A DNA stretch of 41,572 nt from a virus (Duplodnaviria; Caudoviricetes). Below the pieces are notes generated by a model. It made no database searches and was not told the origin of the DNA. It saw only the letters and a list, made by a program, of their open reading frames with translations. Position numbers and translations under genes: made by a program. The stretch lies in IMG/VR virus record IMGVR_UViG_3300010201_000003, positions 1 to 41,572 of that record; one strand, given 5' to 3'. This document shows, piece by piece, positions 12,941 to 34,940 of this stretch (within the stretch, counting starts at the first letter, position 1; every line of letters begins with the position of its first letter).

Positions 12941-13882
12941 GTGAGCCGTTGGTTTCGAATGTATGACGACGTGATCAATGATCCGAAGGTGATGCGGCTT
13001 GAGCCCGCGTTACGGTGGCATTGGGTCGCCGTGCTGTGCGTCGCGTCGAAGGGCGGCGGCGTCGTTCCGGAGGCCGGTGATGTGGCATTCGCTCTGCGGA
13101 TGGGAGAAGGCGAGGCGGCTGCAATTCTCTCGTCCCTGCTCGCCGCTGGGCTCCTCGATCGCGGCGAGGGCGGCGCCCTAATCCCGCACAATTGGGGCGA
13201 GAGGCAATACCAGTCGGATAGCTCGGCCGAACGGATGCGCCGTCACCGTGACAAGCAGCGAGCGGCGAAGGCCTCCGGTTGTGACGTTGCAAGTGACGTC
13301 ACCGGTGACGTTTCGAGTGACGGTCGAGGTGACGTCACAGGTGACGGAAGTTGTTACGTCACAGAGACGGCGCAGAACAGAACAGAAGCAGAGACAGAGA
13401 AGAAAGATTCTCGGTCGATCGTGTCCGATCGCCCGGCGCGTGCGCCTTCTCGGTTCGATGAGTTCTGGAAGGCGTACCCGCGGCGCGACGGACCTAACCC
13501 GCGGAAGCCGGCGGAAACGAAATTCGAGGCACTTGTGAGGACCGGTCTCGATCCTCAGACGCTTATCGACGCCGCGCGGAAGCTCGCGAGCGACGAAACC
13601 GCGCGCGGCAACATCGGAACGCGGTTCATTCCGCAGGCGCAGACCTGGCTCAATCAACAGCGCTGGTCGGATCACGCCGCGGTTGCGGCGCTGCAGGGGA
13701 TCGAGGGCGGCGGGATGACGGTTGAACAGGCGCTCGCGCAGTTCGCGCGGTTCGGCGTTTGGTCGCGCCACGCGCCTTGTCCGGAGCCGGGGAGCCTCGG
13801 TTGCACGATCCCGGCTGAACTGCTGGCGAAATACGGCATCGCTCCTGATGGGTCGCGCTCGCGGCCCGGTGAGGCGGCCTAG
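12941..13882 (+). CDS. Phage replication initiator (lambda O-like organisation)
   Basis: N-terminal WFRMYDDVINDPKV, HNWGERQYQSDSSAERMRRHR; internal iterons; C-terminal FDEFWKAYPRR..FIPQAQTWLNQQRW. Confidence 0.82.
   Translation: MSRWFRMYDDVINDPKVMRLEPALRWHWVAVLCVASKGGGVVPEAGDVAFALRMGEGEAAAILSSLLAAGLLDRGEGGALIPHNWGERQYQSDSSAERMRRHRDKQRAAKASGCDVASDVTGDVSSDGRGDVTGDGSCYVTETAQNRTEAETEKKDSRSIVSDRPARAPSRFDEFWKAYPRRDGPNPRKPAETKFEALVRTGLDPQTLIDAARKLASDETARGNIGTRFIPQAQTWLNQQRWSDHAAVAALQGIEGGGMTVEQALAQFARFGVWSRHAPCPEPGSLGCTIPAELLAKYGIAPDGSRSRPGEAA
13281..13369 (+). repeat. Iterons of the putative phage replication origin
   Basis: GTGACG at 13281, 13293, 13305, 13317, 13329, 13341 and GTTACG at 13353 (exact 12-bp period), including GTGACGTCAC palindromes, followed by a purine-rich tract. 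Confidence 0.75.
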
Positions 13883-28673: not shown

Positions 28674-30167
28674 ATGGCCGGAATTCTCGACCTTCTGAAC
28701 GGGGCGCAAGGCGGATTGCTCGATTTCTTGCGGAACAATGCGCTCAACCAAGCGATGCCGAGCGGGCTCGCCTCGGATATGGCGGACTACGGTACGCCGC
28801 CGTTGTCGCTGGCCGGCACCGCAATGCCGAAGCCGGCCGCGCCGCAGATCGCCGAAGCCAATCAGCCGAGCCCGCTCGACACCGCGCAGTGGCCGGCGGG
28901 GCCGATCGGTGCGCCGTCGAATGCAAACGCGGAAATGCCGTCAATCGCAAAGCCGGCCCCGTTCTCGCTCGGCGGAATGCTTGCGGCGCCCGCGGCGCCG
29001 GCCGGAGGCGGCGCGCCCGCGACTACAGATTCGGCCGCACCGGCGTCGCCTGGCTTTGGCGATCGGCTTTCGGCGTCTCTCGCAAGCGTCCAGCACACCA
29101 AAGGTCTAATCCCGGCCTTGGTAAACGGTGTAACCGGATTTGCGACGGGGCAGCGGACGGATGAGTCCGGCCGGGCGCAGAGCGCGAATGAACGCTGGCT
29201 GGCGTCGAACGGTGTTGACGCTGGAACGCTTGCCGCAGTGCGAGGCGACCCCGAGCTGACAAAAAAGCTTGTTCAGCAGACGATCACGCAGCGTCCTTTG
29301 ATCGCAGCATTGAAAGCGCGAGGGGCTTCTGACGCTGATATCGCTGCGGCAACTTCGAACCCTGAGTTCCTGAAAGCAGTGATCGCCAATAATGTGAAAG
29401 AGCAGGACAACTACCGGCCAGCGACGGCGCAAGAGCGCGCAGCTGCGGGAATGACCGGCGACAACAATACGCCGATGTTCGTAAATCAGACGACGAACGA
29501 ACCGAAGTTCGGGCCCGCGCAAACCAACGTCAACGTCTCGACGGAAAAAACCGGCCAAGCCGAGCTCGCGAAAACAGCCGTCGAAGAATACAAAAACGCT
29601 CAACTCTCATCCAGGGAGGCCCAGAAGCGGATTTCAATGTACGATGCATTTGAGAATGCTGCGCAGGGCTTCACGCCGGGCGCAACTGCTGAAATGCGCC
29701 TGACTGCCAAGCGCTATTTGAAGGACGCTGGACTGATCAAGGGTGACGACGTTCCGGATGGCGAAATCCAACAGATGATCGGCCGCCAGCTCGCTATCCA
29801 CGCGCAGCCGAAGGGCCAAGGCGCCGTCAGCAATTACGAGCGCGAGTTGTACGCCTCGGCGCTTCCCAGCATGATCCAGAGCCCAGAGGGACTGCGGCAG
29901 GCAATCGCGATCAACCGTAAACTTGAACAGTTCGATATGAAGGTCGCGCAAATCTGGCGTGAGAGCGCAGCGGCCAACCGCGGAATTCCGAACTATCTCG
30001 ACGTTCAAAACAAGATCGCAGACCTCGGATCGCCGTTATCTCCGTCCGATATGGCCGCGATCCAGCCGGCCGGTCGTCCGGCGCCGGCCGCGCCAGCGCC
30101 AACCGCCGCAAGTGCGCCGGATCGCGCCGCGATCGAGGCTGAGATCAAGCGACGGGGGTTGAAATGA
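28674..30167 (+). CDS. DNA ejection/internal virion protein 2
   Basis: MAGILDLL start; GQGAVSNYE motif; Ala/Pro-rich. Confidence 0.72.
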   Translation: MAGILDLLNGAQGGLLDFLRNNALNQAMPSGLASDMADYGTPPLSLAGTAMPKPAAPQIAEANQPSPLDTAQWPAGPIGAPSNANAEMPSIAKPAPFSLGGMLAAPAAPAGGGAPATTDSAAPASPGFGDRLSASLASVQHTKGLIPALVNGVTGFATGQRTDESGRAQSANERWLASNGVDAGTLAAVRGDPELTKKLVQQTITQRPLIAALKARGASDADIAAATSNPEFLKAVIANNVKEQDNYRPATAQERAAAGMTGDNNTPMFVNQTTNEPKFGPAQTNVNVSTEKTGQAELAKTAVEEYKNAQLSSREAQKRISMYDAFENAAQGFTPGATAEMRLTAKRYLKDAGLIKGDDVPDGEIQQMIGRQLAIHAQPKGQGAVSNYERELYASALPSMIQSPEGLRQAIAINRKLEQFDMKVAQIWRESAAANRGIPNYLDVQNKIADLGSPLSPSDMAAIQPAGRPAPAAPAPTAASAPDRAAIEAEIKRRGLK

Positions 30168-31825
30168 CCGACTTGACGAAGCTGTCCGACGCCGAACTGA
30201 TGACGCTGTACCATCAGTCGTCAGCTCCTACGCCATCGGCGTCCGCAGCTCCGATGGATCTGACGAAGCTTTCGGACACGGATCTGCTCGCGCTACGCGA
30301 CGCTCATCCGAGCGTCACATCAGATGTGGTGAAGTCGGGCGCTTCGGGGCTGGCGCGAGGTGCGCTTGAACTCGCTGGTTTTGTTCCGAAGGTGTCAGCA
30401 ATCGCACACGATGCCGCGAACAAATACGTGATTGATCCGGTGCTGGATGCGACATTCGGGAAGCCGAAGGCCACCGCCGAGCCGTCGATCGACATCAACA
30501 AGCTGGCCTCACCCGATAGCCTTCAGCGCGGCGTTGAGCAGGTTACCGGCAAGTTCTACGAGCCGAAGACGACAGCTGGAAAGTTCGTGCACAGTGCAGC
30601 CGAAGCTGTTCCGATGGGCATTGCCGCGCCCGGAAGCATGGCAGGCCGGATGGCTTCGGCCGTTGGATCAGGCCTGGCTAGCGAGGCGGCAGGCCAGACC
30701 ACTGAGGGCACGAAATGGGAACCTTGGGCGCGTATCGTTGGCGCATTCGCTGGCGGCGTCGCTCCGATGATGGCCGGCCGCGTCGTCACGCCGCTGCCGA
30801 GCAATCCGGCGCGTCAACGTCTTGTCGATGTGCTCAACGACGAAGGAGTAACGTCGCTGACCGCGGGCCAGCGCACCGGCAACAAATCCCTGCAATACCT
30901 CGAAAGCGCGGCCAGCACGGCACCTGGCGCCGGCGGCGGGGCGACGCGCATTCAGGAGGAAGGGCAGCGTCAGTTCACGCAAGCCGCGATGCGGCGCGCC
31001 GGGCAGGGGTTGCCTGACGCAGCCCCGGAGGTGCTGGCGCAGAATAACCAAAGGCTCGGGCAGGAGTTTCGTGATCTGTCGGCCCGCAACAATCTCGCGC
31101 CGGACAATCAGTTCGTCGATGACATCGTCAATGCGGCCCGCAACTATCGCCGCGTGCCGGACAGCCAACAGCGTCAGATGGTGCAAGGATACATCGACGA
31201 CATCATTGGTCACGTGAACGCCGGCAACATGCCTGGGCCGCAATACCAGGAAATGCGTTCGCGCCTCTCCCGCCAGGCCAACAGCCTGCGCCAGAGCGAT
31301 CCGACGCTGTCGGAGGCGCTGCGCGACATGCGCAACGCGCTTGATGGCGCTATGGGCCGCTCTATTTCGCCGCAAGATCAGGCCGCATGGCAATCGGCGC
31401 GGCGCGAATATGCGGCTCAGAAGACGATCGAGAAGGCGGCGTCTCGGGCCGGAGAGGCGACCGCGGAAGGTCAGATTGTGCCGGCAAATCTGCGCAATAC
31501 GGTCGCAGCAGAGAACCGCGGAGCGTACGCTCGCGGCGAGGGTCCGTTCTCAGAGCTGGCCCGCGCAGGATCTGCGATCATGGCGCCGCTTCCGAACTCT
31601 GGCACCGCTCAGAGGCTAAACGCCTTCAATCTGCTCAACCAAGCGACGCTAGGAGTTGTCCCGGCGGTCGCGGGGCGCGTCGTCATGTCTGCCCCTGTTC
31701 AATCCTGGCTCGCCAACCAGGCGCTCGCCGCTGCGATGCGGGCTCCGGAGACTCAACGGAGAGCTGTATTTCTCGCCTTTCAGGAAGCAGCGCGGAATAA
31801 GCTCCTGGCGCCAGTTCAAGACTGA
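30164..31825 (+). CDS. DNA ejection/internal virion protein 3
   Basis: Duplicated DLTKLSDxxL N-terminus, YEPKTTAGK, LTAGQRTG, PNSGTAQR. Confidence 0.72.
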   Translation: MTDLTKLSDAELMTLYHQSSAPTPSASAAPMDLTKLSDTDLLALRDAHPSVTSDVVKSGASGLARGALELAGFVPKVSAIAHDAANKYVIDPVLDATFGKPKATAEPSIDINKLASPDSLQRGVEQVTGKFYEPKTTAGKFVHSAAEAVPMGIAAPGSMAGRMASAVGSGLASEAAGQTTEGTKWEPWARIVGAFAGGVAPMMAGRVVTPLPSNPARQRLVDVLNDEGVTSLTAGQRTGNKSLQYLESAASTAPGAGGGATRIQEEGQRQFTQAAMRRAGQGLPDAAPEVLAQNNQRLGQEFRDLSARNNLAPDNQFVDDIVNAARNYRRVPDSQQRQMVQGYIDDIIGHVNAGNMPGPQYQEMRSRLSRQANSLRQSDPTLSEALRDMRNALDGAMGRSISPQDQAAWQSARREYAAQKTIEKAASRAGEATAEGQIVPANLRNTVAAENRGAYARGEGPFSELARAGSAIMAPLPNSGTAQRLNAFNLLNQATLGVVPAVAGRVVMSAPVQSWLANQALAAAMRAPETQRRAVFLAFQEAARNKLLAPVQD

Positions 31826-31971: not shown

Positions 31972-32268
31972 CTATCGAACCCGTCCCAGGAATTCTTCAC
32001 CGCGCATTTTCCGGCATGCCCAAGAGAAAGCGCGCGTAGGAGTAGCGGCATTCATACGATTGAAATAGCTAGTCGCTTCTGAAATGCAGGCATCGTAGGA
32101 CGTGCTTTGTCCAACATACCACGCATCCTGAGGGCCATCATGGTAGCCGACTTCGGCCCGGTATGCGTAGTAGCCGGGTAAATAGTCGCACCCAGCTAGT
32201 CCGGGAACGGCACCAAGGACGGCCAAAATAGAAGTCAACCTGACGGTGCGACGGCCGGTCCTGTTCAT
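31972..32268 (-). CDS. Putative lipoprotein (superinfection-exclusion candidate)
   Basis: Basic N-terminus, hydrophobic stretch, lipobox LAG-C; two further Cys; ATGA-coupled to the RHH gene. Confidence 0.7.
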   Translation of the reverse strand: MNRTGRRTVRLTSILAVLGAVPGLAGCDYLPGYYAYRAEVGYHDGPQDAWYVGQSTSYDACISEATSYFNRMNAATPTRAFSWACRKMRGEEFLGRVR

Positions 32269-32438
32269 TTCTGCAAGAATCCGTTCTTCTTAAGATAATC
32301 AGTCAAGACTTTCTCGATTAGCGATGACAGTGACCGAGTGTCTTCGACGGCGGCCTTTTCAGCCGCCTCCTTAACAGAGGCGGGAAGGCGGACGGAAACA
32401 GGCAGTGGCTTCGGATTTGGTGAGGGAGGGCGACCCAT
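32265..32438 (-). CDS. Ribbon-helix-helix (Arc/Mnt/CopG-like) repressor, 57 aa (below ORF-track cutoff)
   Basis: MGRPPSPNPKPLPVSVRLPASVKEAAEKAAVEDTRSLSSLIEKVLTDYLKKNGFLQK*: beta strand VSVRL then two helices with RSLS. Confidence 0.85.
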   Translation of the reverse strand: MGRPPSPNPKPLPVSVRLPASVKEAAEKAAVEDTRSLSSLIEKVLTDYLKKNGFLQK

Positions 32439-32445
32439 TTTTCAC

Positions 32446-32485
32446 ATTAAATGTAGTTGACAAACATGGTGACTACATTTAATAT
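32446..32485 (+). promoter_or_regulatory. Sigma70 promoter overlapped by a 12-bp inverted-repeat operator
   Basis: TTGACA (32457-62), 17 nt, TAATAT (32480-85); ATTAAATGTAGT (32446-57) / ACTACATTTAAT (32472-83). Confidence 0.82.
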
Positions 32486-32556: not shown

Positions 32557-33132
32557 ATGGCCCAGGCTGACGCTGCCAATAGCACATCACGACGACATTT
32601 CCTCTCGTTTCTCGGCGCGGCTGCGGCCACGGCGGCCGGAGCGGTCGCGGTGGCAGCGCCGCCGGCCGAAGATGCGATGGGCACGCACACCGTGCGTACC
32701 TCCTCAGGCGATCCTGAGGCGCCTTCCGCCGACTGGAATGCGCTGTACGACGAACTGCGGGAGCTGTTCGAGGTCTATCAGGGCCACAAGGCGCTACGGG
32801 ACGAGCGCCACGACGCATTCACCCGCTGGGCCAAGCGCAACCCGCCGCCCAGCGATTTGGACCGGCTGGTGCAGCGCGACTATCAGGAGCGCTACGAGAC
32901 GGCGCTTGCACAGTGCGAGTTCGGAGCATTGAAGGCCGCCGAGGACAAAGCGTTCAGCGATTACTACGAGGCAGTCAAGAGGACCGCCCGCACGCCGGTC
33001 AAGAACCTCGCTGACGCTCGCGGCAAGGCCGCGTGCAGCTTGATCGACAACGATACCGGGCCGATCCATAGGCTCCTGTTGAAAGAGCTTCGCGCTATTC
33101 ATCTACACGATATCCACAGTGTCAGCGCTTGA
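32557..33132 (+). CDS. Hypothetical protein with twin-arginine-like N-terminus
   Basis: AAGGA RBS; SRRHFLSFLGAAAATAAGAVAVAA followed by a helical domain. Confidence 0.75.
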   Translation: MAQADAANSTSRRHFLSFLGAAAATAAGAVAVAAPPAEDAMGTHTVRTSSGDPEAPSADWNALYDELRELFEVYQGHKALRDERHDAFTRWAKRNPPPSDLDRLVQRDYQERYETALAQCEFGALKAAEDKAFSDYYEAVKRTARTPVKNLADARGKAACSLIDNDTGPIHRLLLKELRAIHLHDIHSVSA

Positions 33133-33179
33133 TTGAGCGACCGATTGGCCGCCGAGTGATCACCTAATGATCGTAGGTT

Positions 33180-33209
33180 TCCGCCTCTGGCAGGGCGGAT
33201 GTGAACGCG
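33180..33209 (+). promoter_or_regulatory. a1/b1-type target of the downstream C4-like RNA
   Basis: Hairpin TCCGCC/GGCGGA displaying CTGGCAG, then GAACGCG (33203-09); both are exact complements of loops in 33221-33295. Confidence 0.7.
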
Positions 33210-33220
33210 AGATTCGAGGG

Positions 33221-33295
33221 CTTCAATGAGCCCCCGGTTTCGTGAAAGCGAACCCGCGCGTTCCGGGCCTGCCAGGGCCGGGGCGCTCATTGAAG
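33221..33295 (+). ncRNA. C4-like antisense/regulatory RNA
   Basis: Outer stem CTTCAATGAGC../..GCTCATTGAAG; TTCGT-GAAA-GCGAA GNRA hairpin; CCCG[CGCGTTC]CGGG hairpin; CCTGCCAG segment. Confidence 0.7.
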
Positions 33296-33305
33296 GACTA
33301 AGAAA

Positions 33306-34058
33306 ATGGCGAAGAAGGAAGAAGCAACCACGATCACGATCCAGCCACTCAAGCGTGGATCGGTGCGGCTCCGGATCATCGGAGTAACACCGCTTTTCCA
33401 AAATCGAATGGCGAGCAAGGCCAAGCATCAGTTGTTGGTCGGAGGTCAGAAAAAAGGCAAGGCGGATCGCGCCGCGATCAAGCACGATCCGATCTCCGAG
33501 TTTCGCGACAGCGCCGAAATTCTCCCCGGTGGCCCGACCGCGCTTGGCCTGCGGGTCGTTGCTGTGAAGGCCGCGATGGCGACGGCCGCGCTTGAAACGC
33601 CCGGCCTGACCAAGACGTCGGCGCAACGGTTGCTGTTCATGCCGAATGATCTGGTGCCGCTCTACGGCACGCCACAACTGCGTATGGACGTCGTCCGCTC
33701 CGCTGACATCAACCGCACGCCGGACATTCGGACGCGTTGTTACTTGCCGAAGTGGGGCGCCGAGATCGCGATCCACTTCATCACGCCGCAGCTCTCGGTG
33801 CAGGGCGTCGTGTCGCTGCTCTGTAATGCGGGCATTCTGGTCGGCGTCGGCGACTACCGGCAGGAAAAGGGCAAGGGCGCGTTCGGGTCATTCCGCGTGC
33901 TCGGTGAAGGTGAGGACGATCCGGAGTGGAATGACCTCGTTGAGAACCACGGGCGCGACGCGCAGGAAGTCGCACTCAGCGATCCCGAATTGGCTGATAC
34001 CGACACCGCCGATCTGATGGAGCATTTTCACCGGGAGGTGCGGCGGCGAGCTGCGTAG
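33306..34058 (+). CDS. RAMP/Cas7-like RNA-binding protein, putative effector of the GGC-NN array system
   Basis: N-terminal strand VRLRIIGVTPL and C-terminal Gly-rich loop GVGDYRQEKGKGAFGSFRV, as in RAMP proteins; the array starts at its stop codon. ORF is solid, fold is inferred. Confidence 0.7.
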   Translation: MAKKEEATTITIQPLKRGSVRLRIIGVTPLFQNRMASKAKHQLLVGGQKKGKADRAAIKHDPISEFRDSAEILPGGPTALGLRVVAVKAAMATAALETPGLTKTSAQRLLFMPNDLVPLYGTPQLRMDVVRSADINRTPDIRTRCYLPKWGAEIAIHFITPQLSVQGVVSLLCNAGILVGVGDYRQEKGKGAFGSFRVLGEGEDDPEWNDLVENHGRDAQEVALSDPELADTDTADLMEHFHREVRRRAA

Positions 34059-34238
34059 GCAGCGTTTGGCACGGCAGGCGGGGCAAGGCATGGCCCGGAC
34101 GGGCGAGGCGAGGTGCGGCCAGGCAGGCAAGGCGAGGAAAGGCTGCGCAAGGCGTGGCGTGGACAGGCAAGGCAGGCATGGCATGGAAAGGCCGGGAGGG
34201 GCACGGCCTGGCAAGGTCCGGCGTGGCGAGGCCGGCTT
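34058..34238 (+). repeat. (GGH-NN)n pentamer array 1, putative guide-RNA array
   Basis: 33 pentamers, mostly GGC+NN with some GGA/GGT; 4-nt units at 34073, 34122, 34171 (GGCA) and 34230 (GGCC) give blocks of 49, 49 and 59 nt. Confidence 0.9.
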
Positions 34239-34277: not shown

Positions 34278-34787
34278 ATGACGAAGTTTACGAAGGAACT
34301 ACGCCAGCAGATCGTCGAAGATTTTGCGCGGCGTCACAACGGACAGTACGACCCCGCGCTGTTTCTGCGCGAGGTCAAGGACACGGGCGAGAGCCATCCG
34401 GCGTTCGGGTGGTTCGAGTGGGACCAGAGCAAGGCGGCGCAGGAACACAATCTGTGGCAGGCGCGCGCCTTCGCGAAGGATCTCCGGATCAAGTTCGAGG
34501 TCGAGGAGATCAGCAGCGGCAAGTCGATCACGGTTACGACCGAGGCGCCGCTTGTGATGTCGCCGACCGCTGGCCGCCAGGATGGCGGCGGATACGTCCG
34601 CTTCAATCCCGACGATCCGGCGCATCAGGCGGAGCTCTGTCAGCAGGCGGCAGTGGCGCTGCGGTCCTGGCTCAAGCGATACCAAGCTGCGCTGATTCAC
34701 GCCGGCTACGGCGTGAAGATGGTTGAACAGATAGCCGCGTCTCTTGATGCGGTGAAGGTGAATGCTGCGACCGACGTCGCAGCATAG
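34278..34787 (+). CDS. Hypothetical partner protein between the two arrays (169 aa)
   Basis: GGAG RBS, ATG 34278; HPAFGWFEWDQSKAAQEHNLWQAR motif. Confidence 0.8.
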   Translation: MTKFTKELRQQIVEDFARRHNGQYDPALFLREVKDTGESHPAFGWFEWDQSKAAQEHNLWQARAFAKDLRIKFEVEEISSGKSITVTTEAPLVMSPTAGRQDGGGYVRFNPDDPAHQAELCQQAAVALRSWLKRYQAALIHAGYGVKMVEQIAASLDAVKVNAATDVAA

Positions 34788-34795
34788 TTGAGTGT

Positions 34796-34903
34796 GGCAC
34801 GGAGCGGCAGGCGCGGATAGGCGCGGTGCGGCGAGGTAAGGCGCGGCGGGGAATGGCCGGCGCGGTGATGAATTGCAGGGCGGCGTGAGGCTCGGCAAGG
34901 CAA
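34796..34903 (+). repeat. (GGH-NN)n pentamer array 2
   Basis: 4-nt units GGCA (34806) and GGCC (34855), each followed by nine pentamers (49-nt blocks); the last block has three degenerate triplets. Confidence 0.88.
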
Positions 34904-34905
34904 CG

Positions 34906-34940
34906 GACGGCGGCCATGCGTGGCCGTCGTCTCGTTATTT
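34906..34940 (+). terminator. Hairpin/terminator closing array 2
   Basis: GACGGCGGCCA-TGCG-TGGCCGTCGTC, an 11-bp stem with one G-U, followed by TCGTTATTT. Confidence 0.65.

Follow-up and report, generated by a model that had tools for sequence, protein, structure and literature searches.

A predicted staggered VIPR guide array in a P22-like prophage and its likely targets in virion genes of related prophages

Cassette and genomic setting

The window analysed here comprises the 41,572 nt of IMG/VR record IMGVR_UViG_3300010201_000003 (Caudoviricetes). It is a P22-like prophage, with Pfam matches to an integrase, cI, a terminase, a P22-type portal, a capsid, a tail collar and a lysozyme. Two repeat arrays are found within a small cassette ordered as an Arc-like gene, a 191-aa ORF, a 250-aa gene, Array 1, a 169-aa gene, Array 2 and a hairpin. 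Among named homologues, those closest to the cassette proteins come from Bradyrhizobium. On one side the cassette is bordered by a DNA ejection gene (phrog_26400), and on the other by lysozyme and tail-fibre genes. In P22, the immI region, with mnt, arc and ant, separates gene 16 from the tailspike gene; the cassette presumably occupies this same slot.

The Arc/ribbon-helix-helix regulator (32265–32438, minus strand) is divergent from the cassette and matches Pfam Arc with an E-value of 1.2e-4, above the cut-off. All further cassette features lie on the plus strand. A sigma70-like sequence at 32457–32485 (10/12 consensus) is a possible but weak cassette promoter, one being found vs 0.8 in shuffled sequence. 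It is followed by the 191-aa ORF (32557–33132), which is without a Pfam or PHROG match, the 250-aa gene, vipr (33306–34058), and Array 1. The 169-aa accessory gene (34278–34787), termed vap-like, has 59 homologues, belongs to phrog_15946 and is of no known catalytic family. Array 2 (34796–34903) and a terminator-like hairpin with a 12-pair stem (34905–34932; three found vs 2.9 in shuffled sequence) complete the cassette, and hairpins also end the cassettes of relatives. No Pfam family was named for either cassette protein (Vipr or vap-like), and a Pfam scan of the cassette revealed neither a RAMP nuclease nor any further gene for RNA processing. Repeat, Pfam and Rfam searches of the window recovered no CRISPR repeat-spacer array and no cas genes.

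The phage's own ejection-slot genes span 28674–31825 on the plus strand, 30164–31825 being the phrog_26400 DNA ejection protein; they carry no target sites for the arrays, with best self matches of ≤14/18. Elsewhere in the window, a 12-nt tandem repeat at 13281–13346 (5.5 copies, consensus GTGACGTTACAA) lies near the replication region and may represent origin iterons.

Vipr and the accessory protein

Folding the 250-aa protein together with 60 homologues gave a model with a pLDDT of 84 (36 for the single-sequence fold). With Foldseek as the sole structure search, the best solved matches were Csm/Cas7 and type VII CRISPR chains (E 2.6e-4), with TM-scores of only 0.3–0.4. As modelled, the protein is a stand-alone RAMP-fold protein with a G-loop, a thumb and a C-terminal helical extension. 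It belongs to phrog_4652 (E 4.6e-10), as does the ESCO50 protein, a Felixounavirus protein flanked by GGY/NN repeats. ESCO50 was counted as SUSP1-type on the strength of its residue numbering, which agrees with that published for SUSP1, and it serves as a proxy for SUSP1's own sequence; hhalign matched the window protein to it at 93% (E 2.4e-7) over 66 columns covering the thumb and G-loop. R144, D183 and R185 are invariant in the 60 homologues and align with SUSP1 R138, D177 and R179, residues named in the available part of 10.64898/2026.04.26.720927. Homologues that are 28–31% identical, and annotated as hypothetical, are present in Gordonia and Mycobacterium phages (phage collection, H1–H12).

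The locus is a two-gene one, consisting of vipr and the accessory vap-like gene, and the two genes also adjoin in relatives G336, G338, G339 and G001. The vap-like protein has no sequence match to SUSP1-type Vap1 (hhalign, 1%). It resembles an unnamed 146-aa viral cluster (TM 0.71/0.81), which equals ESCO50 vap in length and may correspond to it.

Structure of the arrays

The first G of Array 1 (34058–34238, plus strand) also completes the stop codon of the gene upstream. The initial annotation described a nearly fixed triplet followed by a hypervariable dinucleotide, with 4-nt phase breaks dividing the array into three individual guides. Re-parsing from 34058 reproduced its units letter for letter, yielding 33 five-base and 4 four-base units, the latter at 34073, 34122, 34171 and 34230, with break-to-break distances of 49, 49 and 59 nt. 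The contrast between triplet and dinucleotide is also borne out: among the five-base units, position 1 is G in 31/33, position 2 is G in 33/33, and position 3 is C in 25, A in 5 and T in 3, while 14 of the 16 dinucleotides are used at positions 4–5. GGY accounts for 26/33 triplets, GGA for five and CGY for two. Ten in-phase GG occur in ten units, vs a maximum of 5–7 in order-3 Markov simulations of the window (n=30); the two arrays aside, a count of 6 is reached at only one site in the window.

A leader of three units and the first break occupy 34058–34076, with similar leaders in related loci L003, L004 and L036. These are followed by block 1 (nine units, 34077–34121), a break (34122–34125), block 2 (nine units, 34126–34170), a second internal break (34171–34174) and block 3 (11 units, 34175–34229). 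Both internal breaks are likely guide boundaries, as judged from the parse and from comparison of related arrays. The terminal break-like unit and last unit (34230–34238) are ambiguous; at 34230 the parser favours a five-base unit and then stops, and a single unit follows this fourth break. Array 2 consists of a leader, a block at 34810–34854, a break at 34855–34858 and a block at 34859–34903.

Breaks recur in 63/63 related arrays of at least 110 nt, although this count is lenient because the parser allows such breaks. The blocks themselves differ among relatives, none of which shares more than five in-phase dinucleotides with a window block. Across 72 distinct arrays, GGCA makes up 267/533 breaks. 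Units that precede a break begin with A in 121/250 cases, vs 659/2734 for those inside. In L005, L009 and L012, a 7-base unit, GGATC(A/T)(C/T), is flanked by short units inside arrays and is perhaps a second kind of boundary. A staggered array of about 35 blocks begins at L256:5246, beside a 41%-identical Vipr; its block 1 matches the phage's own replication-initiator-like ORF at 22/26.

Likely guide targets

Under the VIPR decoding rule, the NN of a guide are joined with one skipped base (10.64898/2026.04.26.720920). Read by this rule, block 1 has 27 exact viral stretches, and 27/27 spell GKMPREDAQ, codon-aligned and within one family; other 18-base patterns gave 0, 0, 2 and 5 stretches. In 2/27, the N-terminal part of the target protein is homologous to window 28674–30167. 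Synteny and this partial homology, in place of a family name, suggest that the target is likely an ejection-protein family. The 401 Bradyrhizobium-genus genomes hold no exact site for block 1 and five one-mismatch matches, vs one for the control.

For block 2, the best site is K(E/D)KWKVVQT, matched at 17/18 in G338 and L192, in a protein at the gene slot of block 1's target. G338 and L192 are the only two GC-rich records among the 32 that match eight units of this block. Its two exact matches fall in AT-rich records, outside long ORFs, and were rejected as chance. Block 3 has a candidate site only, MVKRGTLNPKE (19/22), in a 750-codon ORF in the ejection region of the G090 prophage; viral searches returned no exact match. 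The genus scan gave five matches for this block vs two in the control, and only one is in a phage gene, the other four being rejected as not in-frame phage genes. Array 2 block 34810–34854 has five exact matches, of which four spell AYAADNAGI and fall in one family of transglycosylase-like virion proteins; the L041 match was rejected as chance. Block 34859–34903 has 0 exact matches, the best being 15/18.

The assignable guides of relatives (n=6) match a tail-fibre, ejection or neighbouring virion gene. A separate match was seen for L206 block 10, at 17/18, to DCALFLWVT in L216, a protein that we take to resemble MT-A70-type methyltransferases.

The skip rule itself was assessed on 3.25 Mb of related prophage DNA, including 30 Bradyrhizobium prophage stretches. 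With a skip of one base, 15/305 blocks pass, vs 3 with skip 0, 3 with skip 2 and 1 in reversed order. Three of the 15 are the window's own, and their passing is circular, as these blocks were used to seed the database; without the window blocks, 12/300 others pass. A smaller set gave 13/119 for skip 1 vs 1, 1 and 1 for the controls. Skip 0 and skip 2 did not outperform reversed controls and were rejected. For 290/305 blocks, the 3.25 Mb contained no target.

Likely guide boundaries

Nine of the 15 matching guides entered the boundary count, the six without an assignable family gene being left out. The unit after a break matches the target in 0/7 guides (0/52 sites), and the unit before a break in 0/4 internal guides (0/16 sites). 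Leader units before the first break do match codons upstream of the target in the window, at 24/24 sites for Array 1 (34058–34072) and 5/10 for Array 2 (34796–34805). In relatives, such leader matches are seen at 1/3 sites for L003 and at none for L004 and L309 (0/5 and 0/2). Guides spanning a break were suggested by the window's two leaders and were rejected as not general among relatives. A reading in which the break counts as a complete unit (NN = AG) was also rejected (1/60 sites matched).

Matches ending at the breaks support one guide per block, as far as sequence comparison can tell. The division of Array 1 into three guides proposed in the initial annotation can be retained in part: target matches end at the breaks and the breaks recur in relatives, but block 3 is without a firm target. 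RNA processing at the breaks, which that annotation also raised, is a hypothesis.

A sister prophage and self-avoidance

G304 contains a sister prophage that is 87–95% identical to the window over most of its length, except for 28.6–35.4 kb (integrase 98%, cI 92%, terminase 99%, portal 96%, lysin 99%). This prophage is without vipr; block 1 and Array 2 block 34810–34854 both match it exactly, inside its sole long non-aligning region. The cassette's slot holds what we take to be an antirepressor-like ORF (G304 32897–33706). The vipr and vap genes (tblastn) and arrays are absent from 30/30 target-bearing records, many of which are fragments. Near sites are present in two VIPR-positive relatives.

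The window's guides match its own sequence at 14/18, 13/18, 16/24, 14/18 and 14/18; the best, 14/18 (78%), is under 80%. Three relatives exceed an 80% match to self. Relatives' own copies of guide-matched genes differ from the guides. In G339, the peptide is identical in its own copy, but Ser, Leu and Arg are drawn from the other codon box, so that the guides match self at 17/20 and 16/18 vs 20/20 and 18/18 for others. Of the Ser, Leu and Arg codons of that phage, 31%, 14% and 4%, respectively, fall in these alternative boxes. Codon-box escape in G339 is only a lead because some VIPR-free relatives use those boxes at the same sites.

As a separate observation, the VIPR-carrying G339 (L138:10042–10089) and G001 (L278) target peptides that they themselves encode. 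Their own sites have Ser AGC, Leu TTG, Arg AGA or a single-residue change, lowering the self match by 2–3 bases.

Proposed mechanism and alternative readings

In SUSP1 VIPR, one protomer binds per GGY, NN pairing is gapped, a filament is formed, and repression occurs without cutting (10.64898/2026.04.26.720920; available part of 10.64898/2026.04.26.720927). With a probability of roughly 0.85, Array 1 represents the staggered type of VIPR guide array, its blocks matching virion genes in related prophages when read with one-base skips; a Vipr filament would carry each block as a single guide, bind the matching DNA and block its transcription. The cassette may be expressed from its own promoter, with guides separated at the 4-nt breaks either by cleavage or by filament register. 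Four of 24 listed runs gave 0 reads, a count without bearing on expression. A Vipr filament on each guide would then bind sibling DNA and repress late virion genes. A co-infecting or co-resident sibling could not complete infectious virions, which would be the benefit to the carrier. Guides against sibling-conserved genes would hit self because the code reads codon positions 1–2; targets cluster in the ejection module, likely because siblings differ there.

A broader and more tentative proposal, to which we give somewhat less than even odds, is that the tail-less staggered VIPR arrays which rhizobial P22-like phages carry at the immI slot serve to exclude kin. Without a PAM, self and non-self would be told apart at the protein level, and guides would aim at the swapped ejection/tail module of near-identical siblings. 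A carrier sharing the peptide could escape through Ser/Leu/Arg codon-box switches, the sole synonymous loophole of a wobble-skipping code, and the 4-nt unit would keep guides apart, either through a reset of the filament register or through an undescribed cut.

An array without any guide role, whether degenerate microsatellite or coding repeat, could account for the open frames through the array on both strands and for the 5-nt period that TRF detects in part of it. It would leave unaccounted for that positions 4–5 decode to one peptide in 27/27 independent phage records, that the skip-1 rule beats its controls, and that frame and length vary among relatives. Unless the matches are chance, the peptide match and the skip-1 test reject both forms of this reading, which we regard as almost certainly wrong. 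A different question is whether the guides are cut apart. The breaks might be left uncut, with one long RNA carrying several filaments and the 4-nt unit merely resetting the five-base register, so that units just upstream of a break could still pair; this agrees with the preferred explanation in all but the guide-separation step. No hairpin or ribozyme signal is present (folding z = -0.57; no Rfam match below E 0.9), no processing gene accompanies the arrays, and leader units match upstream codons in both window arrays, all as expected of uncut breaks. Yet L004 and L309 show no leader match and L003 one at 1/3 sites, previous units at internal breaks score 0/4, and the A-bias of the unit before a break fits a recognised motif. 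On this balance, uncut breaks seem rather unlikely.

The benefit of the cassette could also lie elsewhere than in lysogen protection. The cassette may mainly drive its own spread or keep its ejection module: rival alleles to either side of the insertion site would be silenced, which would favour cassette-carrying genomes (marker exclusion). All credible targets do lie in genes flanking the cassette's slot, and a divergent Vipr with a like array style occupies the same slot in G121. Self-avoidance alone would give the same target clustering, however, and no nuclease is encoded; marker exclusion is accordingly judged improbable, more so than uncut breaks. At the G121 locus (G121:C15:81306–82500, comprising L309 and L330), the Vipr matches the profile at E 2e-10 and the staggered array is of the window's type; the locus likewise precedes the tail-fibre gene, in the slot that the window cassette occupies, and it targets the same module as the window. 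An orphan array in G121 was rejected, the divergent Vipr lying upstream.

Comparison with known systems

VIPR is recently described and programmable, and has been proposed as ancestral to CRISPR. Going by sequence features, Array 1 and its neighbours are a predicted VIPR system, of a known kind described in 2026; natural targets and computational support for guide boundaries are what the window adds. Like the SUSP1 and P. fulva type II systems, as described in the available parts of 10.64898/2026.04.26.720920 and 10.64898/2026.04.26.720927, the window has vipr with an accessory gene and flanking GGY/NN arrays in a prophage. They also agree in guide length (9–11 units), in the one-base skip and in having targets in rival phages that are aligned to the wobble position; self matches at 80% are absent, and G-loop and thumb residues are conserved. 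The published criterion is about 9–16 tandem GGY/NN repeats per guide beside vipr; the window blocks have 9, 9 and 11. In contrast, type II (SUSP1-like) VIPR has a conserved structured 3′ tail per guide, whereas the window guides abut through a 4-nt unit, with the folding score given above. The window Vipr also has about 50 extra C-terminal residues, and its accessory protein lacks the sequence match to Vap1. The window's arrays point to late virion genes in sibling phages, while published VIPR targets are satellites and lysis-lysogeny regulators (10.64898/2026.04.26.720920).

The closest counterparts are staggered vrRNA arrays, in which successive guides are offset by one base and the end of one guide marks the start of the next (fig. 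S18 of 10.64898/2026.04.26.720920, as available). The window likewise has one-base offsets, with each block probably an independent guide. RNA sequencing confirms only the ribozyme and single-guide array types, not the staggered one (10.64898/2026.04.26.720920). The available text of that source predicts no targets for staggered arrays, whereas in the window target matches mark the boundaries. Bradyrhizobium, ejection-gene targets and synonymous self-escape are not mentioned in 10.64898/2026.04.26.720920 with its supplement or in the available part of 10.64898/2026.10.15.759431; clade and type may be given in tables S1–S3 or data S1–S4.

The Cas7/Csm3 backbone of Class 1 CRISPR and Vipr share a RAMP fold and oligomerization on a guide RNA. 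Unlike Class 1 CRISPR, the window is without a repeat-spacer array and without cas1, cas2, cas5 or cas6, and the predicted pairing is gapped, not contiguous. P22 immI and the cassette share the same slot and an Arc-like regulator, but here the slot has an RNA-guided cassette in place of the antirepressor.

The available parts of the VIPR texts (10.64898/2026.04.26.720920, 10.64898/2026.04.26.720927, 10.64898/2026.10.15.759431 and 10.64898/2026.10.21.760802) leave two questions open: the way in which staggered arrays without tails are read, and the means of avoiding self in the absence of a PAM. A compact multi-guide array would serve multiplex repression. With natural targets that mark guide boundaries and a near-isogenic pair of VIPR-positive and VIPR-null prophages, array reading and self-avoidance therefore become directly testable.
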